From: Candidatus Micrarchaeota archaeon
GTDB taxonomy: Archaea; Micrarchaeota; Micrarchaeia; Anstonellales; Anstonellaceae
Assembly: GCA_964581105.1 (NCBI GenBank)
Contig: CAZOMB010000001.1
Location: forward strand, 79,730-143,729
DNA length: 64,000 nucleotides
Direction of reading: 5' to 3'
In this document: positions 32,711 through 61,558 of the stretch, one piece after another
Position numbering within the stretch: the first letter of the stretch is position 1
Layout: each line of letters starts with the position of its first letter
The notes under the pieces: model-generated
Database searches by the model: none
What the model was told of the DNA's origin: nothing
The model's input: the letters and a program-made list of their open reading frames with translations, nothing else
Position numbers and translations under genes: made by a program

Positions 32711-33658
32711 ATGATTGATATATACTATGAGGAAAAAGGCAAGGTCAAGTCAGCCAAGGCAGGCTCTTTGAAAAGCCTGAAGGGCAAAAAGATGTGGCTG
32801 GACATAACAGGCATGACTGAAAAGGAGAACAAACTGATACAGGAAATATTTGAATTGCACGCCCTGACAGCAGAGGACCTTTTTGACACAAACAACAGCA
32901 GGATAAAGCTTGAAGAGTTCCCAGAATACCTGTTTTGCGTTTTTTATGGAATCCAAAAGGAAAAGACAATAAAACTGAATGAGATTGATTTCATAATAGG
33001 CAAGAATTTCCTCATTACAAACCATAAAAAGGCAGTTGATTCGTTTGAAACACTGAAAAAAAAGACTGAAAAGCTCGACATGCTGTTCTCAAAAGGTCTT
33101 GATTTTGTATTCCACAAGCTTCTTGACCTGGAAATAGACAATTATTACCCGATTTTGGAGATGATTGACGACCAGATTGAGGCAATTGAGGATGAAGTGA
33201 CAAAAAAGGTCAGGCCCGGCTCATTGAGCAGGATACTCAGCCTGAAAAGGAAAATCATATCAATAAAGCGGGTTGTCATTCCGCAGAGGGAAAAGATTTC
33301 TATGCTGACAAAGGGAGACAGGAAGTTCATATCAAAAAAATCTGTCCCCTATTTCAGGGACATTTATGACCATTCGATAAGGGTTGCTGATACTGTTGAC
33401 AATTACAGGGAGGCTGTTGGCAGCACATTTGACGCCTATATGTCTGCTGTTTCAAATAACATGAATGAAGTCATGAAAATATTGAGCATAATTGCAACAA
33501 TCGCCCTGCCGCTTGTTGTGGTTTCAGGCATATATGGAACAAACTTTGACGTTCTGCCAGGAAAGGACCACCCATATGGGTTTTGGATTATGATAGGGTC
33601 AATGCTTGCGCTGGCTGGCTACATGGTTCATATTTCCAGGAAAAAAGGCTGGTTCTAA
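32711..33658 (+). CDS. corA: CorA-family Mg2+/Co2+ transporter (GTN variant of the GMN motif)
   Basis: Two C-terminal TM helices flank YGTNFDVLP (the CorA signature YGMNF with M replaced by T), preceded by a long cytoplasmic alpha/beta plus coiled-coil domain; 315 aa. Confidence 0.7.
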   Translation: MIDIYYEEKGKVKSAKAGSLKSLKGKKMWLDITGMTEKENKLIQEIFELHALTAEDLFDTNNSRIKLEEFPEYLFCVFYGIQKEKTIKLNEIDFIIGKNFLITNHKKAVDSFETLKKKTEKLDMLFSKGLDFVFHKLLDLEIDNYYPILEMIDDQIEAIEDEVTKKVRPGSLSRILSLKRKIISIKRVVIPQREKISMLTKGDRKFISKKSVPYFRDIYDHSIRVADTVDNYREAVGSTFDAYMSAVSNNMNEVMKILSIIATIALPLVVVSGIYGTNFDVLPGKDHPYGFWIMIGSMLALAGYMVHISRKKGWF

Positions 33659-34494
33659 CTCTTGCTTTGCTTTTCAGGCTTGCTCTCTTTTCCTGCTTGG
33701 GGAGGTTTTTCTTCCCCTTCATCAGAAAGCTTCACATCTTTCTTTTCTGGCTTTTGCTCCGGCTTTTTAACTTCTGGCTTTGGCTGCCCTTGTGTTTTCT
33801 CAGGAGGCTTTTGCTCTGGTTTTTTTTCAGCTGGCTTTGCTGCCACTGGCTTTTGTTCTGACTTTTTTCCAGCTGGTTTCTCAGTTTCGTCTTCTGGCTC
33901 CTGCTCTTCCTCAAATTGCGGAAGGGTGGCAGTGAACTCGTCATATGAGGAAATCCTGTTCCTTCCCATCATGTATTCCCTTGCCAAAAGATAGAATATG
34001 AGCGCAAGAGAGCGCCTGCCCTTGTTGTTGCAAGGCACAGCAAGGTCTATGAACATTGTTATGTTGTCAGTGTCGCAAAGGCCTATTGTGGATATTCCCA
34101 TTTTTCCTGCTTCAACTACTGCCTGCCTTTCTCCTTTTGGGTCGCATACAAGAAGAAGTTTTGGCTCTTTGAAGTCATCCCTGTGGACATTTGTCAGTAT
34201 TCCAGGGATAAACCTGCCATAATATGCATTTATTCCAGTCAGCTTGGAAAAGGTTGACGCAGCATTGCCTGAATATGTCCTTGATGCCACTACCAGTATT
34301 TCAGATGACTCGTATTTTGCGAGGATTTTTCCTGCAAGCCTTATTCTTTCGTCTATTTTCCTCAGGTCAAGGACATAAAGACCGTCATTTCTCCTCCTGT
34401 AAATAAAGGGGTCCATGTCAATTACCTTGAGCCTTGTGCCGATGTGTATTCCTGCCTCAAGGTATGTTTCCTGCTTTATCAGAAAGTTTTCCAT
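33655..34494 (-). CDS. rps2: 30S ribosomal protein S2 (uS2) with ~100-aa Lys/Pro/Glu-rich C-terminal extension
   Basis: ILVVASRTYSGNAASTF, GRFIPGILTN, LLLVCDPKGERQAVVEAGKMGISTIGLCDTDN. The start MENFLIKQ is inferred at 34494. The tail reads ..KPAEKKPEQKPPEKTQGQPKPEVKKPEQKPEKK.. Confidence 0.85.
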   Translation of the reverse strand: MENFLIKQETYLEAGIHIGTRLKVIDMDPFIYRRRNDGLYVLDLRKIDERIRLAGKILAKYESSEILVVASRTYSGNAASTFSKLTGINAYYGRFIPGILTNVHRDDFKEPKLLLVCDPKGERQAVVEAGKMGISTIGLCDTDNITMFIDLAVPCNNKGRRSLALIFYLLAREYMMGRNRISSYDEFTATLPQFEEEQEPEDETEKPAGKKSEQKPVAAKPAEKKPEQKPPEKTQGQPKPEVKKPEQKPEKKDVKLSDEGEEKPPQAGKESKPEKQSKS

Positions 34495-34580
34495 GTTTTC
34501 ACCTTTTGGATTCCCGCATGCCCTTGTTGATGGCAACTCTCGGAACAATCCTATTACAATAAAATGGGACCATCGAGATT

Positions 34581-34803
34581 TGAATTCTCGGGCTCGCGTT
34601 GCTCGCCCGTTTAGAGCCTTTCGGCTCCAAATCTGCCCAAGCCCTTAAGGCTTGAGCATTTCGCGCCCATTCAGCGCAGAGCCACTCGAATCGCCGACAC
34701 CCCAAGCCGGAAGGATAGCCAGGTTACCCCATGGCCCCATCAGTATGGTGGGGACAGCAGTGGCAACAGCCACTCAATGGCCCCAGTCTTTTTTTCAGCG
34801 TGG
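34581..34803 (+). ncRNA. candidate signal recognition particle RNA (7S/SRP RNA), compact (~225 nt)
   Basis: Contains CCAAGCCGGAAGGAUAGCCAGG, resembling the conserved SRP helix-8 motif (GGUCCGGAAGGAAGCAGCC). The 5' end UGGGACCAU pairs with the 3' end AUGGCCCCA. There are multiple internal hairpins (CGAGAUUUGAAUUCUCG; CCCCAUCAGUAUGGUGGGG) and a U-run after 34803. No protein-coding signal on either strand. Confidence 0.4.
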
Positions 34804-34839
34804 CTATGTTCAGCAATGAAAGCTTTTTAAGAGAAATGC

Positions 34840-36157: not shown

Positions 36158-36595
36158 TTATCTATAAGATTTCTGGAACCTTGCGCGTGCTTTTGGCCCT
36201 TTGTATTTTTTGGGCTCAACACGCCTTGAGTCTTCTGCAATCATGAACCTGTCATATTCAAGTATCTTTTTCTTTAAATTGTCATCCTTTGAAAAGCCAA
36301 CCAATGCCCTGGCAATTGCAACCCTTGCTGCCTGTGCCTGGCCCATCTGGCCGCCGCCAATTACATTGACTGAAATATTTACCTGTGATGCTATTTGCGG
36401 GGCCAAATGAAGGGGCTCTGATACAATGTCCCTTACATATTTGTTGTCAATTGCCCCTAATCTCACGCTGTTTATCCTTATTATCCCCTTTCCTTTTGAA
36501 ACTGAGGCCCTTGCAATGCTCTGTTTTCTTTTTCCCCTGTAAATATTGGGGGAAATGAGCTTCTTTTTCTTTGCTTTTCCCTTCTTTTTTGCCAT
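36158..36595 (-). CDS. rps9: 30S ribosomal protein S9 (uS9)
   Basis: C-terminus ..GPKARARFQKSYR and GGGQMGQAQAARVAIARALV. The start MAKKKGKAKKKK is inferred at 36595; the longer ORF-track N-terminus overlaps rpl13. Confidence 0.85.
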   Translation of the reverse strand: MAKKKGKAKKKKLISPNIYRGKRKQSIARASVSKGKGIIRINSVRLGAIDNKYVRDIVSEPLHLAPQIASQVNISVNVIGGGQMGQAQAARVAIARALVGFSKDDNLKKKILEYDRFMIAEDSRRVEPKKYKGPKARARFQKSYR

Positions 36596-36603
36596 AAATG
36601 CAC

Positions 36604-37020
36604 CTATTCTGCCTTGTGGCCAAGCTGGTTGCAAAGCTCTTTTATTGTGAACATGCCATGCTTTGCCTCTGAGCTTGCCTCTGGAATTTTCTTTGGCTTT
36701 CCCTCTTTTGCCTGCCCTGCTGATACCCTGAGCCTTTTGTATGCGTCGCGACCCCTCTGGCTTTTGTATGGGAGCATGCCGCGAACCATTTTCCTGAGGA
36801 AAAGGTGCGGGAGCCTTGGCCATTTTGGCGAGTGCTCAGGGTTTTGCTTATCTGTTTGCAGCCTCCTTTTAAGGTACTTTTGCTTTGCAGCAGTGAGCTT
36901 TCCGAGCATAACTGCCTTTTCTGCATTGACTATTTCAACTTTTTGGCCTGCAAGCAGGAGCTTTGCAACCCTTGCGCTAAGCCTTCCTGCAACAGCCCTG
37001 TCTGCGTCAATAAGAACCAT
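36604..37020 (-). CDS. rpl13: 50S ribosomal protein L13 (uL13)
   Basis: MVLIDADRAVAGRLSARVAKLLLAGQKVEIVNAEKAVMLGK.. matches the archaeal uL13 N-terminus; in conserved gene order. Confidence 0.85.
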   Translation of the reverse strand: MVLIDADRAVAGRLSARVAKLLLAGQKVEIVNAEKAVMLGKLTAAKQKYLKRRLQTDKQNPEHSPKWPRLPHLFLRKMVRGMLPYKSQRGRDAYKRLRVSAGQAKEGKPKKIPEASSEAKHGMFTIKELCNQLGHKAE

Positions 37021-37570: not shown

Positions 37571-38155
37571 TTATTTCTTGATTTCTGACAGCTGCTTTTC
37601 AAGCTCATTGCACCTTTCAATCACTATGTCTGCTGCGTGAGAAAGGAACTTTTTTGGCTCAAGCTGCATGAATGACTCGACTTTGAACTTGAATTCGTTT
37701 GGCTTGAGAATTTCATAGGAAATAAGGCCTGGCTGGAATTTTGCATGCTTTCTTCCAATCCCCATTCTTGCCTTTGCCTCAAGCCTGACATTCTGGCCTT
37801 CAAGAAGCTTGAGAAGTGGAATGTCTGCAAGGGCAGACTTTATCTTTGAGTCATTGCTCTTGAGCTGCTTTGAGTATATTGTTCCTGGGCCTTGCGCATC
37901 AAGAGTGAATGCTATCTCATCTGATTGCCTTGCTGAGTCTGAAGCCAAAGGAATCTGGCCAAGCCTGTGTGCCAGGTACTCGTCAAACATTGAGGAGCTG
38001 TTCTCATAAAAGGTCACATTGTCAATTGCAAATACAGGGACCTTGCCTATGCCATACCTTCTTATCAAATTGGCAAACGCAGCAGGGGCCCCTTTGAGCC
38101 TGAACTCGAGCCTGTTTTTCTTTTCAAGAGACATTTCAATATCCATAAAAACCAC
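37571..38155 (-). CDS. rpoD: DNA-directed RNA polymerase subunit D (RpoD/Rpb3)
   Basis: ..RLEFRLKGAPAAFANLIRRYGIGKVPVFAIDNVTFYENSS.. has the RpoD N-terminal signature. In the conserved rps11-rpoD-rpl18e order. The true start may be the internal MSLEKK. Confidence 0.8.
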   Translation of the reverse strand: MVFMDIEMSLEKKNRLEFRLKGAPAAFANLIRRYGIGKVPVFAIDNVTFYENSSSMFDEYLAHRLGQIPLASDSARQSDEIAFTLDAQGPGTIYSKQLKSNDSKIKSALADIPLLKLLEGQNVRLEAKARMGIGRKHAKFQPGLISYEILKPNEFKFKVESFMQLEPKKFLSHAADIVIERCNELEKQLSEIKK

Positions 38156-38167
38156 CTGGCAGGTTCT

Positions 38168-38887
38168 TCAGACCCGCCTGCCTCTCCTTCCGCCTGCCTT
38201 TTTGGTTGTGTCAGTCGGAATTGGCGTAACATCCTCAATTTTTCCTATCCTAAGCCCAAGCCTTGCAAGAGAGCGGACAACTGCCTGTGCTCCTGAGCCA
38301 GGGCTCTTTGCCCCATTGCCCCCAGGTGCGCGTATCCTTATGTGCAATCCGGTTATTCCCCTGTTCTTTGCCTCGTTTGCTACTTTTGCTGCTGCTTGCA
38401 TTGCTGCGTATGGCTTTCCTTCTTCCCTGTCAGCCTTTACAATCATTCCACCTGATGCTTTTGCAATTGTTTCTGCCCCTGACATGTCTGTTACTGTGAT
38501 TATTGTGTCATTTTTTGATGAGAACACATGGCACACTGCCCACTTGTATTCGCGCTTAAATCTCCTGGGTGGAACTGCGGTGGTTGCAGCTGGCTTTGTT
38601 GCTGCTGGTTTTTGTTCCACTTTCTGTGCTGGAGGTTTTTGCCCTGGTTTTGCTGCTGGTTTTTTCTCATCTGGCTTTTGCTCCTTTTTTTGCTCTGGTT
38701 TTGGTTCTGGCTTTGTTGCCACTGGCTTTGGTAATGGTTTTTTCTCTGACTTTTGCTCTGGCTTAGAGTGTTCCTTTTTTTCAGCTGGCTTTTGGTGCTC
38801 CTTTTTTGGCTCTGGCTTTGGCTCATGCTTTGGCTTTTTCTCATCTTTTTTCTTTTCAATTGGTTTTTCTGCCACCATAATCACCAT
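38168..38887 (-). CDS. rps11: 30S ribosomal protein S11 (uS11) with ~100-aa Lys/Pro/Glu-rich N-terminal extension
   Basis: C-terminal core ..[63 protein letters not shown].. The N-terminus reads [29 protein letters not shown]... Confidence 0.85.
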
Positions 38888-39486
38888 TAGCCTGCTGCTT
38901 GTGGAGCCTTTGCATCAGGAACAACAGCCTCTTCCTTTTTCTTCTCTTGCTTTTTTGGCTCCTCTTTGCTTTCTGCTTCTGGAGCAGCAGGCTTTTCTTC
39001 ATGAACTGAAATGTCAATTGGTTTTCTGTGTGAAATTTCCTTCTCCTCATCAACCTTGACCAAATAGCTTGGCACTGTCACTTTCTTGCCTTTTACTGAT
39101 ATGAAACCATGGGTAATGAGCTGCCTTGCCTGCCTTGGGGTCCTTGCAAGCCCTTTTTTCATTACAATTGTCTGCAGCCTTCTTTCAAGGAAGCTTTCAA
39201 CACTCAGTGAAAGAATGTCATCAACCTTTGCATCTGCAGAGATTATGCCCAGCCTTGCAAGCCTTGCCATAAGCGGCTTTGCCATTTCAATTCCCTCTTT
39301 GCCAAGGGAAAGGTATTTCATTGCGCCCCTTCTTGCCTTTTTGAGATCCTGCAAAGTCACCCAAATTTCTTTTGTGTTCTTCAATCCATATGCCACTGCA
39401 AGCTTTCTTTCGGTCTTTATCCTGTCAGCATCCCAGATTTTCCGGGGTGATTCGTACTTGTTCTTGAGTTTTCTCGGGTCTCCCAT
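38887..39486 (-). CDS. rps4: 30S ribosomal protein S4 (uS4) with acidic/basic C-terminal extension
   Basis: [42 protein letters not shown].. matches the archaeal uS4 N-terminus. An S4 domain follows, then the tail ..[24 protein letters not shown].. Confidence 0.85.
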
Positions 39487-39491
39487 TCAAA

Positions 39492-40211
39492 TCACTTTTT
39501 TGGCTCTGGCTTTTTTTCAGCTGGCTTTGGGGCAGGCGCTGCTGCTTTTTTCTCTGGAGCTGGCTTTTCACCTGAAGCTGCTGCAGGCGCTGCTTCTGGG
39601 GCTGCCCTTCCTTTGCCGCCTTTTTCCTCTGCCTTGATTTCCTTTGCCTTTTCAAGCACTGCCTTTCTCAGAACGCCGACAGTCATTCCTGTCCTTCCTG
39701 TGCTCCTTGTCCTCTGGCCGCGAACCTTTTGGCCATACTGGTGCCTGTAGCCCCTCCATGTGTAAGCATCCTTTTCATGGTCAATGTCCTGCCTTACAGA
39801 AAAAACCAGGTCTGCGCCAATAAAGTGCTTGCTCTGGCCGGTCATAATGTCATTCTGCCTGTTGAACATCCATGAAGGAATCCCGTATTTGTCAGGGTTT
39901 TGCAAAATTCCCTCAAGCTTTGCTATCTGCTCCTCAGAAAGCTCTCCAACCATTGTCTTTTCATCTATTCCAAGCTGCTCGCAGGCAATCTTGGAAATCA
40001 CTCCGCCAAGGTTTATCCCTATTCCTTTTACAGAAGTGACTGCCCTTTTCAATGGGAATGAGCCCCTTAAGTCCCTTCCAGCAAGCCTTACAATGCCTTT
40101 TACTTCCTTTCCAGAGGCAGACACTATTGGCTTTGCTGCCTGTGGCTGCCTTTTTCCAGGGCCATGGCCTTTTTTGGTTTTTCCTTTTCCGAATTTTGGT
40201 TTTCCAGGCAT
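39492..40211 (-). CDS. rps13: 30S ribosomal protein S13 (uS13) with Lys/Pro/Ala-rich extensions
   Basis: ..IVRLAGRDLRGSFPLKRAVTSVKGIGINLGGVISKIACEQLGID.. is the uS13 core. The C-terminal tail reads ..EKPAPEKKAAAPAPKPAEKKPEPKK. Confidence 0.8.
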   Translation of the reverse strand: MPGKPKFGKGKTKKGHGPGKRQPQAAKPIVSASGKEVKGIVRLAGRDLRGSFPLKRAVTSVKGIGINLGGVISKIACEQLGIDEKTMVGELSEEQIAKLEGILQNPDKYGIPSWMFNRQNDIMTGQSKHFIGADLVFSVRQDIDHEKDAYTWRGYRHQYGQKVRGQRTRSTGRTGMTVGVLRKAVLEKAKEIKAEEKGGKGRAAPEAAPAAASGEKPAPEKKAAAPAPKPAEKKPEPKK

Positions 40212-41386: not shown

Positions 41387-42028
41387 TCAGTAGAGCTTTT
41401 TAGCATATTCTAGCTGGAGACGCAACAAATTATTTTTTATTTGAGTTGTTTCAGCAAGCCTCCCACCTGCTTTTAGCCATTCAAGACAGTTTTTGTTTAG
41501 GTAAAGGTCTGCAAACGAGCTTTCTACTCCGTTTGTGGCAACATGGAGAAAAAAGAGCGCTGTTGCAATGTCTTTTGAGGTTGCTGTCTTTGGCAGTTTA
41601 CCAGAGCCAAGAAGGTTAAGAAAAACAGTCTTAGTTTTCTCTGTCAATTTGATTCTGAAAAAATGTGAAAAGAATGCTGCCCCTAAAGCCCCTTTCTTGG
41701 AAAGGAAAAGGGTGCGGGAGTCTGGCTCAAAAGACGGCCTTGAAGAAGTCGATACATTCAACCCAAGGATCTGAGATACATTAGACAAATCTCTTACAGG
41801 CTTAAGTTCAGAAAGAGTTTTGCTGACAACCCTTTTTGATTCTGTTACTGGTTTTTCATATGTTATATATTCTCCAAGAAAGACCATTTTCCCTTTTTTA
41901 TATGTCTGTTTTTCCCTTAGCTCAATTGGAGAACTGGGGATTTTCTCAAGAAGCTTGTTTATGTTTGAAAACCTTGGATTTGATCTCACAAACTCGTGCA
42001 TTATCTGCTGTGTGATTACGTTTTTCAT
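41387..42028 (-). CDS. hypothetical protein (213 aa)
   Basis: ORF with coding-like composition; 4-nt overlap with the giant gene upstream; no motif recognised. Confidence 0.35.
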   Translation of the reverse strand: MKNVITQQIMHEFVRSNPRFSNINKLLEKIPSSPIELREKQTYKKGKMVFLGEYITYEKPVTESKRVVSKTLSELKPVRDLSNVSQILGLNVSTSSRPSFEPDSRTLFLSKKGALGAAFFSHFFRIKLTEKTKTVFLNLLGSGKLPKTATSKDIATALFFLHVATNGVESSFADLYLNKNCLEWLKAGGRLAETTQIKNNLLRLQLEYAKKLY

Positions 42029-45000
42029 TCAGATCCCCCCATCTGGCTTTTGACTCCTCTTGAAAAATCTTCCCATGCCTTTTCAGGGCTATTGCCTAAA
42101 CTCTCCCTAATCCTGCCCAAATGTTCCTCGCCCAGCAAATCCAACAATTCTTTCTCCTTAGAACTGAAATTCTTTCTCATTTGTCCCCATGATTGTTTGA
42201 AACTTGCTTCTATTAATTTCCACTCATCTGGGTTAATTCCTTTTGGTCCTTCTTTAAGCAGAAACAATTCCTCAAAATCTCTCAGATCATCATGGAAAAG
42301 CCCTGCCCCCTCATAATCAATTCTTGTAAGACTTCCGTCTTCCCTTATTAAATAATTATTTTGATGAGTATCATCAAGGCCAAATGCATCCTGATATGCC
42401 ATGCATTTGCTAATACTTTCAAGGTAAGCCTTTCTTTTTGGCCCTCCTTGCATTATGTCTTTGAGTTTTACTTTGCCATAACTTTCTGCTGTGTAAAATT
42501 TGCCAAGAGACATTCCATCTGCAACAGTTATTATGCTGTAATTTTCAAAAGGATAAATTGAATAATCCGAATCAAGTCCCATAAGCTTCATTGACTCCAA
42601 TGCATTTGCCTCTTTGGACAGTTCATCAAAGTCTCCAAATTTTACTATTGTTGTCTTTTCTCCTGTTAATGGTATTTCAAAAACAACAGAACCTCCATCC
42701 AGACGTTTTGCTGTCCTGCTAAAATCATATTGTGGTACCAAGCCTTTTGATTCCGGGAAAACAACATTAAGTTTTGAATTGATATCCGCAATTTGATTTG
42801 CCAATTGGTGGGGAAGATTGTTTGAAATCAGGTAATCCATGAAGTCATTTATTCCTTTGCCAGAATTCTCCAATGCCCAAGAATCAAAAGAAGTTTGAAG
42901 ACCATCCAATGACCATATTAGACCATCACCAGATATATTCTCATATTTTTCAAGGTAACTAATGGCATGTTCCTTAAAAGCTTCCAGTTCACTTTCTGGC
43001 AGCTCGAGGATTTTCCACCTCTTTTTCTTGCTATTGAGCCCTATATATAACGAACAATTTCCTTTTCCATCAGGAACAAATTCCATTAATGACATGGAGC
43101 CCCGGTCAAAGTTGAGCTCATTTAAGTCGTTCCCTTTCAGTGATTCTTTAATCCACCCGTCTTTTGGCTTGAACTCTATCCCAGTACTAACATTATAATG
43201 ATAAGTCTCATGCAAATCTCCGCTTGGCTCAAATTTGACCAGCTTTTTGCCCCTGTACTCTTTGAGCCTTTTTTCTATAGTTGCCCCTCTGTTGGTAATC
43301 CCCCCAACATTGCTGAATTTCTTTGGGAAGTAAAGCGAAAGATTGTTTTCAGATGCATAGTTATAGACTTCTTCCATAAGCCAGTCTGTTAGCTCAACCT
43401 GCTTCTGAGAAGAAAGCAAAGTTGAGCCATTGCCAAGGACTTTCTCTGAAGGGTCAACAGAGAGGATGATAAGCGATGGCTTGCCTTCCACCTCACGCAT
43501 CAGGAAAAGAACCCCCCCAGCAATCTCGTTGTTTTGGAACAAGGTTGCAGTGCATATGTCCGGCCTTGCAAGAGAATAGCCGGGGTTATCGCCCAAGCAG
43601 GTACCAGAGTAGCTTCCGAAGAAAGTGTTGAGAAGGGAGTTGTTTTTTCCGAAAACCAGTCGAAGTTCTCGCGTGACTGATTGCTGTTTTTGCGAAGACT
43701 CGATGATGCTTGCCCTGGCTTTGATAATCTGCTGGTAAGCCGGACTTTTTCTTACAGATGGGAGAAGGGCTGAAAGGCCGTTTTCATCAAGCACCTCTGA
43801 AAGAAAATTGTCAAACTCATTCAGAGTAACAAGAAGCTGAGTGTTTTCTGCCTTTGTGAGCTTGCCTCCCTGCACATAGGTTAAGAAAATATCCCTATTG
43901 CCAGAGCGCATGCAGGCATCCCAAACCATGCCTGACATGTCGCCAAGCTCACTGTTCTTCAAAGCCTGCCGCAAAGCCCCCTCTTCTGATTTGTCGACAA
44001 GGCTATCATCAAGTTTGAGGTTGCGCATCAGGCCCTTTTTGTCTTCCAAGCTTCCTTCCAAGAATATATTCAAGACTTTGTCATGCCCTTGCTTTATCAT
44101 TTGCATATAATTCTCTGCTGCAGCAGACTCCTTTGCCTCCAAGAGAGCTGTTCGAAGGCTGACATCTATGCTTTCAGAAAGAGACACATTGACTCCCTCT
44201 ACCTGAAATTTGAGCTGCACGACTTTTTTGGGGATATCAAAAACCAATCCATTTTCAAGCGCATCTGCGTACATTTCAAGAGCATCCTTGTACGCCCCTG
44301 CAATATCATGAGAGTTTACTTTCGGGCTGAAATGGGAACCAAACTTGTTCATTACTGCATAGATGTTTTTCTCAAAATCGCTTCCTTGAATTTTTCTGAG
44401 AAGGGGATCCATATATCTTCTCAAGTTTTCAGGTATTTCCTCCCCATTCATAAGCAGAAGCTTAAATTCATTGTTCTCTCGAGCTACTTTCATGCTGATG
44501 TTTGAAAAAGCCTTTTGAAGCTGCTTGTCTTTCAGACTGTGCAATATCTTTTCAGAACCCATAAGCTCTTCCATGAATATGCTATAGCCACTTCCATGCA
44601 GATTTTTGAGAAGCTGGGGCTGGGAAGAGAGCTTTTCTGTTATGAACTGGAGGAATTCACGTTTCTCAGGCATACCGACAAAATATTCATAGAAAGAGGA
44701 TAGGAACTCTGGCTGGGGGTTTTCCTTCATAAGGAAACTCTCCGACATCTCCAGCGCATCAATGAGCTTTGTGACATCAGGCCATACTGCATTTGAATGC
44801 ACTATTGAATTAAGGATTGTAGATGCTGAGAGTTCCTTGTGCGACCTGATGAATTTTTCCAATTGGCTTGCATCCATGCTGTGGAAATTTGATAGATATC
44901 CATCTGGATTAGAATCCATTTCATCAGAAACTCCCTTGTATTCGAGTATAAATTCATCGAAATTTTCAAGGATTCCTGTAGCTTCTGAATTGGGAGAGTT

Positions 45001-48000
45001 TTCCAGGATGCTGTTGAGCAGGGAGACGAACTTATAGTCTTCTGTTTCCCCAAGATAGGAGAAGTCATCTGCAAGATCGTGGAGCAGTTTTGCATAGTTC
45101 TGCAGCTCTTCATCACTCGCAGACTCGGCTATGAAAGAAAGATTAATGTCATTTATAAGCTTCATCTCTTTGTTAAGAATAGCCCCATCGACCTCAGATT
45201 TGGAAAGTCCTGATTTTTTTACAACATAATCTTTCACTTTTTGCACTGCTGGAGATTCAGACTCCCTGTACAGCTCGAACGTCCCACCGTGGGTCTTCGT
45301 GAACTTCTTGTCTATGAAGCCGTCCAGCTGCTCTTTGGCATTGTAAAGGCCTGGGATTTTTGCGTCAAGCCGGATGCCAAAGCCATTGAAGACTGTCGTT
45401 GTAAGGCTCTTTACCATTTCAGGATTCTGATTGCAAAGCTCGTAGAATTTCTGGTAGTCGCTTGCAGTAAGGCTGGACGCATTTTTTTCGGCATTTCTCA
45501 TTATGATTGAGTTGCTTCCGCATTTGATATATATCTTTACAAGCTTGTCGTTTTGCGCCAGCTTAAAGAGTCCCCTTGCATCGTTGTTTATCAGATAGGG
45601 GGCGATTTTGTGCAATATATAGTCTACTTCCGGTGCCCCTAATTTTTTGGCCTGGAACAGAAATAAAGCGCTTTGCCATGCATTTTCCATGGACAGAGTT
45701 CGGGGCTTGCCAGGAGTATAGCCTTTGTACAATTCAAGGAAGTTTTTCACGTGGCGCATGCCAAAGAGCTCTTTGTTGTCTTGGCCTATTAGCCCTTGTA
45801 TATATCGCTCGTTTTTAACCACGCCAGCAACCAGAATGTTCATCCCAATTTCTTTGTTGGCTTCAACAAATGACTGCAGTCTTGTTACTCCAGACAAAAT
45901 CTGTGGCGAGGTAAACTGTCGAATATATGGCTCTATATTCTCATAAGTTTTCTTGTACTCGTTTGGCTTGTTAACTGAAGCGATTACTTCCTGAATTGTT
46001 TTTTCCCTGATTGTCTGGCTCTTGTTCAGAAAATTATGAACATCTGCAAAGGTCATTGGTTCTGTATTGCGCAGTTCGAGTGCAATTCCAGCGTCAACGT
46101 TCCTGCTTACAGCGATTATGAAAGTCTGCATCTGCTTGTTGAGTTTTGCCTGTTTGAAAAGCTCTGTGGAAACATTGCCTTGGTCAGGCTTTACCGAGTA
46201 AAGCTCTTGCTTGAATGACTCAGTAAAGCTATTTTTCATTGGTTTTTGAGTTCTGAGAACAGAGGAGGTGAAATCCCTTGGTGGGTTTTTAATTTTCAGC
46301 AATGGCTTCAGCTTTATCCTTGGCCCTATGTTTTCAATATACCACTTCTCCAGGAATTTTTGGACTTTTGGTGAGCCGTTTTTTGTCAATATATCTTTTG
46401 TTTTAATCAGCCCGTCAGTTGATTTTAGCTTCATGAATTGCTCTTCTGTTAATTTCATGAAGTTTGAATATCTTTCATACCCGACTATTGGACTGAATTC
46501 TTTTTGTGACATTATTTTTCCAAAATCCTTTACTGCCTTCTCAAGTGCTACTACTCTTGCCTTTGGGATTGTGATTCCTGGGTTTTCTAAAAGGGCAAGC
46601 TCATACTCAATGTTCAGAAGTTCATTAAACAGCCTCCTCATAAAAGTAGTCTTTGTAACTAAGCCCATGTTTTTGGCTATTTTTACATATGCTGACTCTG
46701 GAACCAAAATAAGAGAGAACATTGTATAGCCAAGAGTATTGAGGCCTTTGTTTTCAGCCTCATTTATCGCATGGACAATCTCATCCAGTTTACCTGTTTT
46801 CAATGATTCATCTATTGCTATGTCTGTGTCATAAAGGGGCACAAGAACATTAAGTCCTGGAACTATTGGAAGAACATATCTCATGGCAAAATCAGATATG
46901 TCTTCCTTTAATGTACTTTCAGTCTTTGGTAAGTTTGAGTCAGCTAATGAAGAAGGAGAAATAAGCTTCCAATAGCTGCCAATATCATAAACAAGTCCAT
47001 CATAACTTGTAAATTGCCTGTCCATAAGCTTTTTTGTCTTTAGAGGGTCTGCTGCTTCAATCAGGGATTCATAGACAGCTCTATTCTCTTTAAAGTATTT
47101 GCTAAGAACCGGGGAAAGGTTGTTGTCAGTAACAAAACTTGAGAGAATAAAATCCGCTTTTTCAAGTACAATGGAATTCATAACCTTTTGGCTGTCAATG
47201 TCTCTTTGCTCATATGGCTTAAGTTCATTGTTTGAGAAATACTTGATGTGCTCTGGATTGTTTTCATAGTGAAGCTCCATTGCTTCCTGTGACTCATAAA
47301 GGCATTTGCCAATAAGCTCAAGCACCTGCTGATTGGTTATTCCTGCTGGGAGCTTTCCCTCTTTGAGGATTTTCGAATATAAGTTGTCGATTTTTTTATT
47401 CTGCGTGTCTTGTTGCTCTTTTTCTTGCACAGGAGCTAGGACTTGCTCTCCAGAGGGAAGAGTAACTACCTGCCTTGGCGCTTGACCAGGATATTGGTTT
47501 TTCATATAATTTTTATAAGAATGGCTTTTCTTGAGTTTTTTTAGCTCTTTTTTCTGTTTTTGAATTCTTTTTCTTCTTTTTTTCTTGTATTTTGGCTCAT
47601 CATCATCAGCTCCTGCGCTTGTGCCTCCTTTTTCTTCTTTAGCATCAGTGAAAAAGCCGTCTGTTTTGGTTTTTTGCAGATTGCTTGCTGCTGTTGCTCC
47701 CTCCACAAATTCTACAAGGACCCCAATAGTTTTGCTGAAGTCTGGAATATTACTTTTGATAGGGATTTTGCTCGCTTTAAGGGCAGTTGCTATGTTTTGA
47801 TAATCTGGCTCAAATAACTGGTTTTCTGATAGGTGGATGAAATCCCTTTCAATTGCCTTTAGGGCTGTTTCTATTGTTTTAAGAGATGAACTAAAAGAAG
47901 GAAGATCTCCTTTAACAAGCTGTTTTTTTGCTTCAATTGCTTTTTGCCCAATCAAATTGAATTTTTCAATGGTTGGAAGGTTGCTTTGACCAACAAAGCC

Positions 48001-48183: not shown

Positions 48184-48411
48184 CTACTTGGCTTTGTCTT
48201 GCTTTTTTGCTGGTTTTGATTGCTTTTCGCCTTTTCTTGCTGTTGGCTCAAGGTGAAGCACTGAGCATTTTCTCTCCTTGCCCCTGAGAGGAGAGCTTAT
48301 CATTACAAAATTCTCGTCAATTACTTTTGTTATCACTACTTCTTCTCCTGAGTCTCGGCCTTTGGTTTTTATGCAGATGCGACCTGGTTCAATTGCTGGC
48401 ATTTTAATCAC
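48184..48411 (-). CDS. rpl14e: 50S ribosomal protein L14e (eL14)
   Basis: MPAIEPGRICIKTKGRDSGEEVVITKVIDENFVMISSP..KCSVLHLEPT matches the eL14 KOW-domain protein. Confidence 0.8.
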   Translation of the reverse strand: MIKMPAIEPGRICIKTKGRDSGEEVVITKVIDENFVMISSPLRGKERKCSVLHLEPTARKGEKQSKPAKKQDKAK

Positions 48412-49001
48412 TTCCTCTTTTTTCTCTTTTTCTTGCTCTTTGTTTTCTTTTTTCTTGATTTCTTTCTTGGCTTTTTCTTTTGCTTTGCCATTTTTTCAGT
48501 TGCAGCCTGTGCTATTATTGCTGCTGACTGGCTTGGCATGAAATTCCTGCTGTTTATTACAATGTCAAAGCCAGAATGGTCATAAATGTCAATTTTGTAA
48601 ATGTCAAGGTAGCGCAGCCTGTTGCTCTCATCCCTTTCATTTATGTGCCTGAGCGCCTCTTCTGGCCCCATCTTGTCGCGAAGAGCTACGCGGGCTGCCC
48701 TTGCTGCTCGAGGTGCATAGAGCCATACTTTTATGTCTGCATTTTTTACCATCCACGGGCCAAGCCATGTTGTTACAACGCAGTTGCCTTTTGTTGCAGC
48801 TGCCATGAGCCTTTTGTCAAAGTCCTTGTCTATCCTGTGTTCTGCTTCTGCCTTTTTGTGAAAGTCAAGTAAATCCATTTTCTTTTTTGCTGCCAATGTC
48901 TTAAAGGTTGGGTTTACAAGCCTTAAGCCAAGCTTTTTTGCTACAAGCGAGCCAACTGAGTTTTTTCCGCTTCCTGAAAGCCCAGATATGCAGATAATCA
49001 T
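48408..49001 (-). CDS. cmk: cytidylate kinase (archaeal type) with poly-Lys C-terminal tail
   Basis: P-loop IICISGLSGSGKNSVGSLVAKKLG; conserved position between rpl34e and rpl14e. The tail reads KQKKKPRKKSRKKKTKSKKKRKKRK. Confidence 0.8.
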   Translation of the reverse strand: MIICISGLSGSGKNSVGSLVAKKLGLRLVNPTFKTLAAKKKMDLLDFHKKAEAEHRIDKDFDKRLMAAATKGNCVVTTWLGPWMVKNADIKVWLYAPRAARAARVALRDKMGPEEALRHINERDESNRLRYLDIYKIDIYDHSGFDIVINSRNFMPSQSAAIIAQAATEKMAKQKKKPRKKSRKKKTKSKKKRKKRK

Positions 49002-52305: not shown

Positions 52306-52797
52306 TCATTTGTCACCAGGTTTTGGAGCTGGTTTGTTTTCAGCTGGTTTTTCTTGTTTGGGTTTTTCAGGCTGCTTTTCTGGCTTTTTTGCGAATGTTT
52401 CTGCAGCTCCGCCTGCTTTTTTTATTTTTTCTGCTGCGCCTTTTGAGAATGATTGCGCTTTTACTGTTACTGGGGCGGTTATCTGGCCTGTGCCAAGCAC
52501 TTTGCCGTCAAATTCAAAGTAATCCTTTCCTTCACGCTCTTTTAGCTTTCCTTTTTGTGCTAGCTGGTCTATCTGAAAAAGGTTGATTGTCCTTATTTTT
52601 GCTTTTGGCAATGGGGAAAAACCTTGTACACCGAAATAATTTGGCTCATAGCGCGTAATATATGTGAAGCGGTGCTTTTGCATTCCTGCCCTTCCCCAGC
52701 CGCCTTTGCTGCCCTTGCCCCTCTTGTTCTTTGTGTTACCTGTGCCATGGCTGCGGGTCCCGTGGAACTTTCTGCTTCTTTTTCTTTTCCTTTTCAT
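52306..52797 (-). CDS. rpl15: 50S ribosomal protein L15 (uL15) with Lys/Pro/Glu-rich C-terminal tail
   Basis: MKRKRKRSRKFHGTRSHGTGNTKNKRGKGSKGGWGRAG is the uL15 N-terminus. The tail reads ..KKPEKQPEKPKQEKPAENKPAPKPGDK. Confidence 0.85.
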   Translation of the reverse strand: MKRKRKRSRKFHGTRSHGTGNTKNKRGKGSKGGWGRAGMQKHRFTYITRYEPNYFGVQGFSPLPKAKIRTINLFQIDQLAQKGKLKEREGKDYFEFDGKVLGTGQITAPVTVKAQSFSKGAAEKIKKAGGAAETFAKKPEKQPEKPKQEKPAENKPAPKPGDK

Positions 52798-54539: not shown

Positions 54540-54989
54540 TCACTTTTTGAGCATTTTGCTTTCCTTGAGGTGTGCCTCAAGCATCCTTATCCCCTTGAAT
54601 GCATTGCCTTTTACCATCATGTAAGCCTTGCGGAAGTGCTTGCGGTCCAGCCTCTTTTTTTCCAAAAGTTGCCTCAGGTATTTCCTTTGTGCGCGTACTT
54701 TTGCAACCCATGCGTCCTTTGTCCTTAATCTTGAGTTTGGAGTGCCTTTCCTGCTTCCTTTTCCTTTTCTCCTGCCTTTTCTTTTTTGCTCCTGCTTTTT
54801 CCTTCCGCGGACCCTGCAGACACCGCGTTTTGCCAGGGCATATATTGCCCCGTCTTTTATGAGCGCGCGAACGTCCTCTCTGGTAAGTGCCTCTGATATT
54901 TTTTTGTGGGACTCTGGCTTGAACTTGATTTTTGACCTTCCTGCCTTTAGCATGCGTGCCGAAATCCTTCTTACTGTTGACATTGCCAT
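54540..54989 (-). CDS. rpl19e: 50S ribosomal protein L19e (eL19)
   Basis: MAMSTVRRISARMLKAGRSKIKFKPESHKKISEALTREDVRALIKDGAIYALAKRGV.. matches eL19. Confidence 0.85.
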   Translation of the reverse strand: MAMSTVRRISARMLKAGRSKIKFKPESHKKISEALTREDVRALIKDGAIYALAKRGVCRVRGRKKQEQKRKGRRKGKGSRKGTPNSRLRTKDAWVAKVRAQRKYLRQLLEKKRLDRKHFRKAYMMVKGNAFKGIRMLEAHLKESKMLKK

Positions 54990-54994
54990 TCAAA

Positions 54995-55594
54995 TCACTT
55001 TTTTTGAGGGACATCATACTTTATTTCCTGCTTTTTCTCAGCAGGCTCTGGCTTTTTTTCAGCTGGCTTTTCCTGCTTTGGCTTTTCTGCTTTTTCTTCA
55101 CCTTTTTTTGGAGCGTGTTCTTTTTTCGCTTCTGGTTTTGGCTTTTCTTCCTTTTTCTTTTCAGGTTTTGGAGCTCCTTGCTTCTTTTTCTCTTTTTTTT
55201 CTGGCTTTTTTACTCTCTTTTTCTTTTGCTTTTGTTTTTTCTCCCTGTTAAGCACACGAAGCTTTGCTAAATCTGCAAGCTTGATTATCTCCTGCCTTTT
55301 CCTTTTGCCAACACCTGAAGCTATCCTTATCAGGACATTCTTGAGGCTAGAAAGCTCTTTTGCTGACTGCACAAGCACCTCAGGCATGCCACGCGGGTGC
55401 AAATTCCTTATTTTTGACGGCTGGCTGTAGCCTATTGATGGGGATGCGCCCATGTATGCGAATTTCCTCCTTTTCTTGTTGTCAGTGCCCCTCTGGCTTC
55501 TCCAGTTCTTTTTTATCCTGCTCCTGCAGCTCCTTCCGTAATTGGGCCTCCTGAATTTTGGGTGCTTTCTTTTCTTTATTTCCATTTTTATCAC
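54995..55594 (-). CDS. rpl32e: 50S ribosomal protein L32e (eL32) with ~90-aa Lys/Glu/Pro-rich C-terminal tail
   Basis: ..KKRKHPKFRRPNYGRSCRSRIKKNWRSQRGTDNKKR.. is the eL32 N-terminus. The tail reads ..KKPEKKEKKKQGAPKPEKKKEEKPKPEAKKEHAPKKGEEKAEKPKQEKPAEKKPEP.. Confidence 0.85.
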   Translation of the reverse strand: MIKMEIKKRKHPKFRRPNYGRSCRSRIKKNWRSQRGTDNKKRRKFAYMGASPSIGYSQPSKIRNLHPRGMPEVLVQSAKELSSLKNVLIRIASGVGKRKRQEIIKLADLAKLRVLNREKKQKQKKKRVKKPEKKEKKKQGAPKPEKKKEEKPKPEAKKEHAPKKGEEKAEKPKQEKPAEKKPEPAEKKQEIKYDVPQKK

Positions 55595-58682: not shown

Positions 58683-59132
58683 TCACTCCTTTTTCTCCTT
58701 TGCTGGGCCCCTCTTTTCCAGGACCTCTGTTTCCTCTTCAGGTTTGTCGGAGGCAAGCTTGTCCCTTTTTACCTCTGATTTTTTGAGCCTGTCTTCCTCT
58801 TCATCAAGGGCGCGGCCGCCTTTCTGGTCAATCACAACAATGCCCTTGACTTTTTTGAGTATTTTTGTGACAACCCATGCCTTTGTTTTTGAGATTTTCC
58901 TGCATTCTGCTATTTCAACTGTGTCTCCAAGCTTTGCGCCTATTGAATCTGGGTTGTGGACATGGATTCTTGACTTGCTTCTTGCTGAGCGCTTGTATTT
59001 TGGGAAATACTCCAAAGATTCTATCTCAACTATAATTGTTTTTTTGGAGCGGTCGCTGACCACTAGACCTGCGCTTGTGTGGCCCCTTGCCACAATCGGC
59101 CCCTTTCTGTTTGAATCCATTCCCATAATCAT
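58683..59132 (-). CDS. rps17: 30S ribosomal protein S17 (uS17) with acidic/basic C-terminal tail
   Basis: ..GLVVSDRSKKTIIVEIESLEYFPKYKRSARSKSRIHVHNP.. is the uS17 OB-fold. Confidence 0.85.
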   Translation of the reverse strand: MIMGMDSNRKGPIVARGHTSAGLVVSDRSKKTIIVEIESLEYFPKYKRSARSKSRIHVHNPDSIGAKLGDTVEIAECRKISKTKAWVVTKILKKVKGIVVIDQKGGRALDEEEDRLKKSEVKRDKLASDKPEEETEVLEKRGPAKEKKE

Positions 59133-59762: not shown

Positions 59763-60143
59763 TCACCTTCCGGCTGCTTTTGCAGCCTGATTTTCGCCAT
59801 CTTTTTTTCCAGCCCCTTTTTCATCAGTTTTTTGGGCTGGCTTTTTCTCCTCCTTTTTCTCATTTTCGCCAGTTTTGCTGGCGATTTGTGAAGCTTTCGG
59901 CTTCACATCTTGCTTTTTGATGCCTGGCATTTTCTTTGCAATGCCGAGCTTTCTTGCGTGGAGCATGGTCTTTATCCTTGCAACCGCCTTTTTGAGCTCG
60001 TTTATTTTCCCGGGGTTTGATGTCCTTCCGCCTGTTGCAAGCATTCCCCTTTCTGAGTTGAGCTCCTTTTGGAACTCAAAAAGCCTCGTCTGAAGCTTGT
60101 CGTCATCAAGCTCCTTTATCTCGCTTTTTTTGATGATTGCCAT
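59763..60143 (-). CDS. rpl29: 50S ribosomal protein L29 (uL29) with Lys/Glu-rich tail
   Basis: ..IKELDDDKLQTRLFEFQKELNSERGMLATGG.. is the uL29 helix. Confidence 0.85.
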   Translation of the reverse strand: MAIIKKSEIKELDDDKLQTRLFEFQKELNSERGMLATGGRTSNPGKINELKKAVARIKTMLHARKLGIAKKMPGIKKQDVKPKASQIASKTGENEKKEEKKPAQKTDEKGAGKKDGENQAAKAAGR

Positions 60144-60148
60144 TCATA

Positions 60149-60910
60149 TCACTTTCTTCTCCTTGGTCCCCTGCCAGTCGGCCTTCCCCGCCTTCTTGGG
60201 GGCTGCCTTTTTTTCAGGGGCTGCACTCTCTTCTTCTCTGCAACCTCCATCGGGGTTGATGAAGTCACGTCATCAGCAGATGCAATCACTTTTGGAATTT
60301 CTATTTTTGCGTCCTTTTCCTTGTCAGGGAATACTGTGCCGGGAAGAACGATTCTCACAAGCACTCCTATTGCGCCTGACTTTGGGTATGCTGTAACATG
60401 GTCCATTGCCACCATTCTTGCAGGCTCACCTGCCTTTGGTATGTAGCCTGACATTACCCTGAAGGATTTGCAGCGGCCGCCTTTTGCAGCAATTTTGCCT
60501 GATGCAACTATTTCTGCCCCTAAAGCCCCTGCCCTCATTATGTCGCGCAATGAAGCATGGAGTATTGCCCTGACTTTCTTCCCCATTTCAATGAACCGGC
60601 AGATTTTCTTTGCAACAAGCCTTGGCTCAAGGTTCTGGTTTGCTGATTCAACAACAGATATTTGCGGGTTGTCGATTTTGAACTCCCTTTTTATTGAGTC
60701 AGTAAGCTCTTGTATGCTTCTTCCCCTTTTGCCTATTACCCTGCCCGGGTTTGTCACTTCAACCGCTATCCTTGTTACCATTGGCGTGCGCTGTATTGCA
60801 ACCCTTGAAAACCCAGCCCTGTCAAGCTCGCTTTCCAGGAATTTTGACACCCTGTAGCGGGTGATTGCGTCTTCAATGAATTTTTCCTCAACTTTGTTCT
60901 TGTTTCCCAT
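60149..60910 (-). CDS. rps3: 30S ribosomal protein S3 (uS3) with Arg-rich C-terminal tail
   Basis: KH domain, then the uS3 C-terminal domain (..VLVRIVLPGTVFPDKEKDAKIEIPKV..). The tail reads ..KKRQPPRRRGRPTGRGPRRRK. Confidence 0.9.
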   Translation of the reverse strand: MGNKNKVEEKFIEDAITRYRVSKFLESELDRAGFSRVAIQRTPMVTRIAVEVTNPGRVIGKRGRSIQELTDSIKREFKIDNPQISVVESANQNLEPRLVAKKICRFIEMGKKVRAILHASLRDIMRAGALGAEIVASGKIAAKGGRCKSFRVMSGYIPKAGEPARMVAMDHVTAYPKSGAIGVLVRIVLPGTVFPDKEKDAKIEIPKVIASADDVTSSTPMEVAEKKRVQPLKKRQPPRRRGRPTGRGPRRRK

Positions 60911-60919
60911 TAACCCATC

Positions 60920-61558
60920 TCATGCCTTTGCAGGCTCTAATTTTTCAGCAGCAGGCGCCCCTTTTTTCTCTTCTGGCTGTTTTTCATTCTTTTTCTCCTG
61001 CGGCTTTTCTGGCTTTTCTTGTTTTGGAGCTTCTTCTTTCTTTTCTTCAGGTTGCTTTTGCTCTTTTTTCTTTTCATTCTTTTTCTCTTCTTTCTTTTTT
61101 TCAACTGGTTTTTCCTGTACCTCTTCAAGAACCACTTCAACAAATGCTGTCTCATAATCATGCCTCATTCTTCTTCCCTTTGGAGCAAGCCGCGGAAAAG
61201 AGGCTTGCTTGTTTGCCATTATGTGAACAACTTTTGTGCTGCCAAGCTGCAGCCTTGCTGCATTTGCTGCGGCGCTTTTTACAATCTCAAGAACTATTTT
61301 CACTGACTTTACAGGCCAGCCCCCTTTCCTTCCACCAAGCTGCTTCCTGTGGCCCATCCTCTTGTTGTGCCTTGCAAAGTAAATTGGGACTTTTTTCTCT
61401 GCTGCCAATGCAAGGAAATTGATTGCATCCTCTGTTGCCATGCCCCTGACATTGTTGCAGACCTCGCACAAGTCCTTGAACGAGGCATTGACCCCAGTAA
61501 TCCTTGCGCAGGCAATGCGCTTTGATTTTCCCTTGTATGCATATTCCATTTGAACCAC
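60920..61558 (-). CDS. rpl22: 50S ribosomal protein L22 (uL22) with ~70-aa Glu/Lys/Pro-rich C-terminal tail
   Basis: ..ARITGVNASFKDLCEVCNNVRGMATEDAINFLALAAEKKVPIYFARHN.. is the uL22 core. The tail reads ..EKKKEEKKNEKKKEQKQPEEKKEEAPKQEKPEKPQEKKNEK.. Confidence 0.9.
   Translation of the reverse strand: MVQMEYAYKGKSKRIACARITGVNASFKDLCEVCNNVRGMATEDAINFLALAAEKKVPIYFARHNKRMGHRKQLGGRKGGWPVKSVKIVLEIVKSAAANAARLQLGSTKVVHIMANKQASFPRLAPKGRRMRHDYETAFVEVVLEEVQEKPVEKKKEEKKNEKKKEQKQPEEKKEEAPKQEKPEKPQEKKNEKQPEEKKGAPAAEKLEPAKA

Follow-up and report, generated by a model that had tools for sequence, protein, structure and literature searches.

Hypervariable lysine-, proline- and glutamate-rich extensions on many ribosomal proteins of a Micrarchaeota archaeon

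We analyzed a stretch of 64,000 nucleotides (nt) from Candidatus Micrarchaeota archaeon (contig CAZOMB010000001.1, assembly GCA_964581105.1), hereafter the window, and describe the long, low-complexity extensions carried by many of its ribosomal proteins. From 33.6 to 64 kb, the window contains the classical archaeal ribosomal protein superclusters, with every gene on the minus strand. The genes are arranged in the order uS2, RpoN, uS9, uL13, eL18, RpoD, uS11, uS4, uS13, and Cbf5, followed by Cmk, eL34, an EMC3-like membrane protein, Adk, SecY, and then uL15 through uL2, uL23, and uL4. The map of open reading frames (ORFs) shows that the conserved archaeal gene order is kept (uL2-uS19-uL22-uS3-uL29 ... 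uL15-SecY-Adk ... uS13-uS4-uS11-RpoD ... uS2), and the relatives are alike in this respect. An Rfam scan of the window returned tRNAs only and no rRNA. The closest genomes in GTDB are Micrarchaeota (DPANN), among them Anstonellaceae and Micrarchaeia, whose uL14 proteins are 79-85% identical to that of the window.

An earlier note on this DNA had proposed that ten ribosomal proteins (uS2, uS11, uS4, uS13, uL15, eL32, uS17, uL29, uS3, and uL22) and the kinase Cmk all carry tails built from lysine, proline, and glutamate (K/P/E) units. All ten match their Pfam families with E values of 1e-10 to 1e-37, Cmk matches Cytidylate_kin2, and each of these proteins has a long terminus that Pfam leaves unmatched. 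Here, we define a KPE segment as a sliding window of 20 residues in which K, P, and E together make up at least 60%, and a tail as the residues past the conserved core, taken from the Pfam match or from the core end of the window protein. By these definitions, nine of the ribosomal proteins (uS2, uS11, uS4, uS13, uL15, eL32, uS17, uL29, and uL22) have a terminal KPE segment, and their extensions add up to about 580 residues beyond the conserved cores. The proposal holds as made for eight, uS2, uS11, uS4, uS13, uL15, eL32, uL29, and uL22, where K/P/E-rich extensions of 28-105 residues are real and run past both the Pfam core and the end of solved archaeal orthologues. uS3 does not belong in the list, and the entries for uS17 and Cmk require qualification.

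The longest of these extensions belongs to uS11 and, despite its listing among the tails, is N-terminal: about 105 K/P/E-rich residues with a net charge of +13 and degenerate tandem repeats (38573..38887; this and all tail coordinates below are on the minus strand), in which the KPE segment spans residues 1-94 and the Pfam S11 domain begins at residue 118. The other seven are C-terminal. uS2, whose residues we count from an internal methionine (279 residues; gene 33655..34494), has a Pfam S2 core ending near residue 190 and a K/P/E/Q-rich tail of 89 residues with a net charge of -1 (33658..33924), all of it KPE segment (residues 191-279). Solved archaeal uS2 chains have 195-208 residues and their matches stop at query residue 195; a few chains reach 225-247 residues, with N-terminal extensions. 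In uS4, the S4 domain ends at residue 148 and is followed by a 41-residue tail with a net charge of -2 (38890..39012; KPE segment 159-196). The uS13 tail begins after the end of the Pfam S13 domain at residue 174 and has 55 residues with a net charge of +5 (39495..39659), with an alanine-rich first half and a KPE-type stretch over the last 27 (residues 213-239). uL15 has the shortest tail, with 28 residues and a net charge of +4 (52309..52392; Pfam domain end at residue 136, KPE segment 133-166). eL32 has 83 extra residues with a net charge of +19 (54998..55246), its Pfam L32e domain ending at residue 116 and its KPE segment covering residues 114-199; solved archaeal chains of 123-161 residues stop at query residues 116-118 of the 199-residue window protein. 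The K/E/A/G-rich tail of uL29 has 58 residues and a net charge of +8 (59766..59939; Pfam L29 domain end at residue 64, KPE segment 89-115), giving a protein of 126 residues versus 65-72 in solved archaeal chains. Finally, uL22 has an E/K/P/Q-rich tail of 67 residues with a net charge of +3 (60923..61123; KPE segment 139-212), and solved archaeal chains of 150-156 residues match the 212-residue window protein up to residue 148.

A chance origin of the terminal KPE segments is excluded. With an overall K+P+E fraction of 0.206, the probability of at least 12 such residues in 20 is 1.3e-4 per position, and terminal KPE segments are present in 9/27 ribosomal proteins of the window versus 1/38 other proteins (Fisher p = 0.001). 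Pooled, the window tails contain 34% K, 19% E, 12% P, and 10% A, and several are net neutral or negative. Both example strings quoted in the earlier note are located, one in uS11 and the other in eL32. Its statement that the tails generate long spurious antisense ORFs is also borne out, as plus-strand ORFs of 87-346 codons cover every tail (for example, 38019..39059, 54628..55251, and 60922..61422); read as reverse complements, the codons AAR, GAR, CCA, GCW, and CAR give no stop. An AlphaFold2 model of uS11 based on an alignment of 50 sequences has residues 1-110 as coil with a per-residue confidence (pLDDT) of 45-57, compared with 70-94 in the core. Taken together, biased composition, coil, and low model confidence predict that the uS11 extension is a disordered low-complexity region.

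The three qualified cases differ from one another. The C-terminal extension of uS17 (58686..58847; 54 residues, net charge -1) starts after the end of the Pfam S17 domain at residue 90 and makes the protein 149 residues long versus 109-114 in solved archaeal chains, and its last 22 residues (KPE segment 128-149 only) agree with the proposed tail type. However, they are preceded by a conserved, non-repetitive segment, GGRALDEEEDRLKKSEVKR: the first ~30 residues of the extension are not of low complexity and are conserved in the clade (GGRALDxEAERLKKxEVKR), being found in 17/17 close relatives but in neither the distant Micrarchaeia nor the outgroups. For uS17, an AlphaFold2 model built from one sequence has a mean pLDDT of 48 and shows no more than a possible low-confidence helix at residues 109-126. 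The uS3 tail (60152..60310; 53 residues) is a segment with an arginine-rich end that is conserved among close relatives and does not belong to the KPE type. Across archaea, long tails on uS3 are common, with 40-214 residues and other compositions in Methanoperedens, Thermoplasmata, and others; we therefore excluded uS3 from the phenomenon. In Cmk, the Pfam domain ends at residue 152 and is followed by a 29-residue tail (48411..48497), KKKPRKKSRKKKTKSKKKRKKRK, whose composition is polybasic (K/R/S/T) rather than KPE.

The extensions are not confined to one assembly. An identical uS4 protein is found on contigs of four assemblies made independently (ENA and JGI, two each), which are 99.9-100% identical to the window at the DNA level over the uS13, uS4, uS11, and uS2 tails. 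The possibility of a chimeric assembly, which the earlier note had raised as a check on its own claim, is thereby ruled out. For the C-terminal tails, translation follows from the lack of a stop codon ahead of them, and the uS11 extension can be taken as part of the protein because its start codon overlaps the stop codon of uS4 and no in-frame ATG lies nearer the core.

To place the tails in a phylogenetic context, we surveyed 80 GTDB loci centered on uL14, measuring in stop-to-stop ORFs the residues that lie beyond the core end of the window protein. Among them, 17 close relatives have cores 54-88% identical to the window proteins. The uL22 tail has 18-115 residues in these close Micrarchaeota and in all 22 Micrarchaeota loci with uL22, with 40-68 in distant Micrarchaeia and 2-7 in Methanoperedens, Thermoplasmata, and DHVE2. 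The corresponding figures for eL32 are 9-88, 0-37, and 4-9 residues, and those for uS17 are 29-44, ~0, and ~0. uL29 tails have 12-37 residues in the close relatives, are mostly missing in distant Micrarchaeia, and are ~0 in the outgroups, with up to 45 residues in some Thermoplasmata. uL15 tails have 5-21 residues in the 17 close Micrarchaeota and 3-21 over all relatives compared, this protein not being recovered in the distant or outgroup loci. Cmk tails have 14-24 residues in the close relatives, 8-11 in distant Micrarchaeia, and 0 in the outgroups; those of relatives are K/R-rich, with 4-43 residues, and DHVE2 lacks them. For the small-subunit cluster, an N-terminal extension of at least 40 residues is present in 117/120 uS11 homologues (median 74, range -1 to 147), the cores of the 45 listed being 87-95% identical. 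Four relatives have uS13 of 250-259, uS4 of 181-218, and uS2 of 260-285 residues, with A/G/K/P tails of 58-69 residues on uS13, tails of 23-60 on uS4, and acidic A/E/P tails of 48-94 on uS2.

A broader search with the uL22 core alone against 1.84 billion cluster representatives (50% identity) yielded 100 matches with the core end aligned. Tails of at least 30 residues are present in 74 of these 100 nearest representatives (median 69, maximum 169), with a pooled composition of 25% K, 18% E, 12% A, and 8% P, and the named representatives are Micrarchaeota, Norongarragalinales, or 'DPANN group'. The trait is thus phylum-wide in Micrarchaeota, on the same proteins and at the same ends. These results agree with the view that the tails are lineage-specific: they occur throughout Micrarchaeota, whereas Methanoperedens, Thermoplasmata, and DHVE2 have 0-9 residues on uL22, eL32, and uS17, and comparison with related archaea shows that KPE-type tails are not common to all archaeal orthologues. 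On the other hand, while the expansion is a feature of the lineage, it is not special to the window genome, which lies at the long end of total tail length but is not unique, as four other loci (L005, L008, L010, and L019) have comparable totals. Outgroups carry tails on other proteins, namely uS3, uS5 in Thermoplasmata, and uL24 in DHVE2. Thermoplasmata loci (L052, L059, L061, and others) have uS5 tails of ~60-78 residues, acidic or A/P/E-rich, and uS3 tails of ~95-214 residues; DHVE2 (L057 and L060) has poly-Glu-rich uL24 tails of 33-48 residues; and an uncultured archaeon (L058) has a uS3 tail of 214 residues with E/K repeats.

The tails are also restricted with respect to the type of protein. 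We counted terminal segments of at least 25 residues rich in K/E/P/A/Q in 26 Micrarchaeota loci and found them in 59/373 ribosomal protein ORFs, that is ~16%, versus 1/253 other ORFs (p = 3e-13), the single exception being probably spurious. In the outgroups, 14/232 ribosomal protein ORFs and 1/189 others have such a segment.

While the presence of the tails is stable, their length, charge, and sequence are not. Tail length differs 5-10-fold among close relatives, and a comparison of KPE-type tails among relatives found no positional sequence conservation. The uS11 extensions of relatives consist of HEKK-like repeats followed by Ala/Pro-rich stretches, and their net charge is -8 to +1 in the 45 relatives inspected versus +13 in the window; uS2 tails are acidic in relatives versus K/P/E-rich in the window. 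Within one genome, by contrast, the tails of different proteins are compositionally alike beyond expectation (permutation p < 0.0005). Tail alanine rises with genomic G+C (rho 0.46, p 0.03), while glutamate and glutamine fall (rho -0.54 and -0.50, respectively). The window has nearly the lowest G+C, 0.446, with only L021 (0.441) lower, and its tails have the highest Lys and Glu and nearly the lowest Ala. The large-subunit tails are net positive in 22/23 genomes (0.02-0.17 per residue), the remaining locus (L051) having 0.0. An adaptation of the acidic, halophile type was considered and ruled out, given that the window tails are Lys-rich and net neutral to basic.

At the DNA level, Tandem Repeats Finder detects arrays in the tails of uS11, Cmk, eL32, and uL22, with 59-100% matches and periods of 6-51; those of uS11 have periods of 12, 27, and 51. 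The degeneracy of these repeats means that they are old or fast-diverging. In addition, the tails of different genes share short modules. The clearest one is a 14-nt word, AAGCCAGCTGAAAA, which encodes KPAEK and occurs four times exactly, in tails only: in uS2 (33824..33837), uS11 (38778-38791), uS13 (39514-39527), and eL32 (55056-55069), all on the minus strand. The uL15 tail has a copy with one mismatch (52337-52350), and six matches are found at up to one mismatch versus 0.28 expected. Between uS13 and eL32, the module grows to 24-27 nt with identical codons. The corresponding peptide KPAEKK is present in uS2, uS11, uS13, and eL32, and KPAEKKPE in three of them, its codons being identical between uS13 and eL32 and the uS2 copy departing by a single synonymous change; EKPKQEKPAE is common to the uL15 and eL32 tails. 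Overall, the tails of different genes have 7 peptide 8-mers in common, versus 0.06 in shuffles and 0.29 under a first-order Markov model, and 21 words of 18 nt versus 0.08 and 2.2 expected, and their longest common DNA substring is 27 nt versus a mean of 14.6 in codon shuffles. The coordinated expansion proposed earlier is therefore supported in the sense that each genome has one compositional flavor and that, in the window species, the tails also have DNA modules in common.

Among the loci compared, this sharing is confined to the window species. The module was not found in any of 84 other loci, 26 of them from Micrarchaeota relatives, and module sharing as a clade-wide property is ruled out since none of 24 relatives shows anything comparable. 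Enrichment for a palindrome or restriction site was likewise rejected, as CCAGCTG, which lies inside the module, has 16 matches in the window versus 15.9 expected. A scan of a metagenome collection for the 24-nt form, AAGCCAGCTGAAAAAAARCCAGAG, returned a ParB linker and one K/E/P-rich ORF only. The former lies in a ParB-like protein of gut bacteria, within its disordered linker (KSVKPAEKKPEQKPVAT), and was found in L089, L103, and ~20 other human-gut metagenome loci, and the latter is an unrelated ORF in L113 (contig Ga0315291_10009434). These matches are coincidental or convergent, and they caution that identical short modules can have independent origins.

The best-supported conclusion is that Micrarchaeota maintain the presence of a tail on these proteins, but not its sequence, length, or charge. 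With moderate confidence, we favor the interpretation that the tails are weakly constrained, disordered extensions at free termini, shaped by replication slippage and short ectopic exchange and having at most a generic physical role. The fact that the ends of uS2, uL22, and uL29 are also extended in eukaryotes suggests that these termini are free and solvent-facing. The tails appear to grow, shrink, and change by slippage in the purine-rich AAR/GAR/CCA codon repeats. In the window species, short-tract ectopic exchange or template switching between the tails of different genes appears to act on top of slippage and to homogenize the tails to a K/P/E flavor, which would also fit the low genomic G+C. 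Selection on tail sequence would then be weak or absent, and a sequence-specific role is unlikely. Functionally, the tails may surround the ribosome, or the proteins before assembly, with a hydrated fringe of polyampholyte or polycationic character that affects solubility or weak, non-specific RNA contacts, or they may be close to neutral in cells with very few ribosomes. Counts for ARMAN-type cells gave ~92 ribosomes in each (Comolli et al., values from the table in PMC6888934); with so few, the protein cost of the tails should be small and selection against them therefore weak. The contacts with membranes or nucleic acids suggested in the earlier note, if taken as specific and electrostatic, fit poorly with orthologous tails that range from acidic to strongly basic and vary so widely in length.

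Several observations weigh against this interpretation. A purely mutational process would not obviously respect the boundary of the ribosomal proteins, to which the tails are nearly exclusive, and the near-invariant presence of the extensions (117/120 uS11; 22/22 uL22) hints at selection for having a tail. The net positive charge of the large-subunit tails is compatible with RNA binding and, together with tail presence and the restriction to ribosomal proteins, keeps an RNA-binding or surface-fringe role alive. Also, KPAEKKPE could be a selected short linear motif instead of a footprint of recombination.

There are three functional alternatives. The first, which takes up the earlier note's suggestion of compensation for rRNA reduction, is that the tails, being basic and disordered, bind rRNA or mRNA and make up for reduced rRNA segments or lost ribosomal components in a genome-reduced DPANN archaeon. 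This idea would account for tails that are found across a whole phylum, are confined to ribosomal proteins, and are net positive on the large subunit in nearly all genomes, with the window uS11 and eL32 extensions at +13 and +19, and the clade-conserved segments of the uS17 and uS3 extensions resemble structured additions. Nevertheless, we consider it unlikely, given that the uS2 and uS11 extensions of close relatives are neutral to acidic, that the window tails of uS2, uS4, and uS17 have net charges of -1 to -2, and that relatives with cores 54-88% identical to the window proteins differ 5-10-fold in tail length and retain no positional conservation in their KPE-type tails.

It is also conceivable, although we regard it as distinctly improbable, that a selected polyelectrolyte fringe of ~600 residues coats the Micrarchaeota ribosome and does real work, with KPAEKKPE serving as a multivalent docking motif in the window species. 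If so, the fringe might hold the few ribosomes in a condensate or at the membrane, or chaperone ribosomal proteins without dedicated factors, and it would represent an archaeal, independently evolved counterpart of the shell of eukaryotic ribosomal protein extensions.

We give still less weight to the third alternative, in which KPAEKKPE and EKPKQEKPAE are short linear motifs shown repeatedly on the ribosome surface as docking sites for one common partner, which might be a chaperone of assembly, a factor involved in hibernation or clustering, or a component of the membrane or of host contacts. Far above expectation, the same peptides of 8-10 residues recur in the uS2, uS11, uS13, uL15, and eL32 tails, and the 14-nt word has four exact copies, all of them in tails. 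However, the use of the same synonymous codons speaks for a shared origin of the DNA and against convergent selection of the peptide. The absence of the module from 26/26 related Micrarchaeota loci, none with analogous sharing, would require a species-specific partner, and the same 24-nt string arose by coincidence in the gut-bacterial ParB linker. Lastly, we see almost no room for the tails being artefacts, whether assembly chimeras, mis-called frames, or untranslated spacer before the uS11 core, since, although low-complexity repeats are liable to mis-assembly and the reverse strand of the tails is likewise open, the same sequence is present in four independent assemblies from two archives, the C-terminal tails have no stop codon before them, the frames are open in hundreds of homologues of varying length, and the uS11 start overlaps the uS4 stop with no in-frame ATG closer to the core.

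Other features of the window are worth recording. Four copies of a conserved gene-junction motif, AAAAAGTGATTTGAATGGC, lie on the minus strand at 39479-39501, 54527-54549, 54982-55004, and 60136-60158. In it, the Lys-Lys-stop of the upstream gene (AAA AAG TGA) seems to serve at the same time as a Shine-Dalgarno sequence of the GGTGAT type for the gene that follows; if it does, translational coupling may limit change in the 'KK' with which several tails end. At the boundaries of ribosomal protein operons, an intergenic motif of 32 nt, TTTTTGGTGNAGCTTTTTAGGCACCC(C)AAAAA, occurs repeatedly (36123-36154, 37434-37465, and 40275-40306) and is a candidate promoter or terminator element. The longest ORF of uS9 (36158..36823, minus strand; 221 residues) extends upstream into the uL13 gene, but the gene calls of other assemblies give 145 residues, so its long N-terminus is an artefact of overlapping frames rather than a true extension. 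Between cmk and cbf5, within the ribosomal protein supercluster, lie ORFs of 2031 residues (42025..48120, minus strand) and 213 residues (41387..42028, minus strand) with no Pfam match; the same gap holds small ORFs only, one of ~62 residues, in four related Micrarchaeota, and the arrangement suggests that a giant protein gene was inserted specifically in this lineage. Outside the superclusters, three loci (14069..15733, minus strand; 18172..19773 and 23863..25478, plus strand) encode paralogous Cys-rich proteins with a common C-terminal CxxC-rich block, 'CxNCxxCxxCFNxKxKRxAIGN', and are interleaved with two ftsZ paralogues (15821..16885 and 19932..20987). A 462-residue E/K/A/Q-rich, coiled-coil-like protein with a tandem 'EEKAIAEKTAV' unit is encoded at 29899..31287 (minus strand); its gene is called at 427 and 438 residues in two other assemblies, and one assembly is broken at 30420-30430, as might result from variation in repeat copy number or from slippage in assembly.

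Ribosomal protein extensions that are specific to one lineage are mostly discussed as a eukaryotic innovation linked to rRNA expansion segments. Here, an archaeal phylum with reduced genomes appears to have independently lengthened many of these protein ends with long, very fast evolving, putatively disordered tails, a natural experiment on what constrains such tails on an essential machine, be it presence, charge, or sequence, and on how low-complexity coding repeats spread between genes. There is also a practical side: the tails make proteins longer, give rise to long spurious antisense ORFs, and can lead both gene callers and alignment trimming astray in DPANN phylogenomics, a field that depends on these same marker proteins.

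Among known systems, eukaryotic ribosomes have the same C-terminal ends lengthened as the window, in uS2/SA, uL22/L17, and uL29/L35, with chains of 252-308, ~184, and 122-127 residues, respectively, the correspondence being judged by how long the chains are and where the alignments end. When aligned with phmmer, eukaryotic uL22 and uS2 continue for 15-50 residues into the tails, over stretches that are of low complexity in both partners and unconserved in relatives. For uL22, the alignments were prolonged by 15-28 residues through composition, and sequence homology of the extensions themselves is doubtful; the tails probably originated independently within Micrarchaeota. Moreover, eukaryotic extensions are in many cases conserved and adopt an ordered form on rRNA expansion segments, in contrast to the hypervariable ones of the window. 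An archaeal precedent is eL32 of Haloarcula marismortui (240-241 residues), with ~100 residues outside a core at chain residues 125-232. The haloarchaeal extension is acidic. It is also N-terminal, in contrast to the C-terminal, Lys-rich tail of eL32 in the window. The tails on individual ribosomal proteins of other archaea, on uS5 and uS3 in Thermoplasmata and on uL24 in DHVE2, resemble those of the window in being terminal, low-complexity, and lineage-specific, but they lie on other proteins, are mostly acidic or Ala/Pro/Glu-rich, and affect one to three proteins per genome.

Another close parallel comes from insects, in which mosquito RpS6 and RpL23a have histone H1-like, Lys-rich extensions (PMC11764897). 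Like the window tails, these are long, repetitive, Lys-rich, and lineage-restricted, sit at the termini of conserved ribosomal protein cores, arose independently in different proteins of one organism, and have no demonstrated function. The window tails thus share the lineage-restricted terminal position of the insect type but not its Ala/Lys/Pro composition, in which acidic residues are few; among the tails compared, those on uS13 in relatives (A/G/K/P) are alone in looking truly H1-like. In our search of the literature on ribosomal protein extensions or low-complexity tails in Micrarchaeota and DPANN, the trait was not found described. While the insect extensions are found on two or three proteins, the tails reported here are polyampholytic and occur in an archaeal host on at least eight proteins at once, and it is this combination, together with their hypervariability and the DNA modules common to the tails of different genes, that sets them apart from the known systems.

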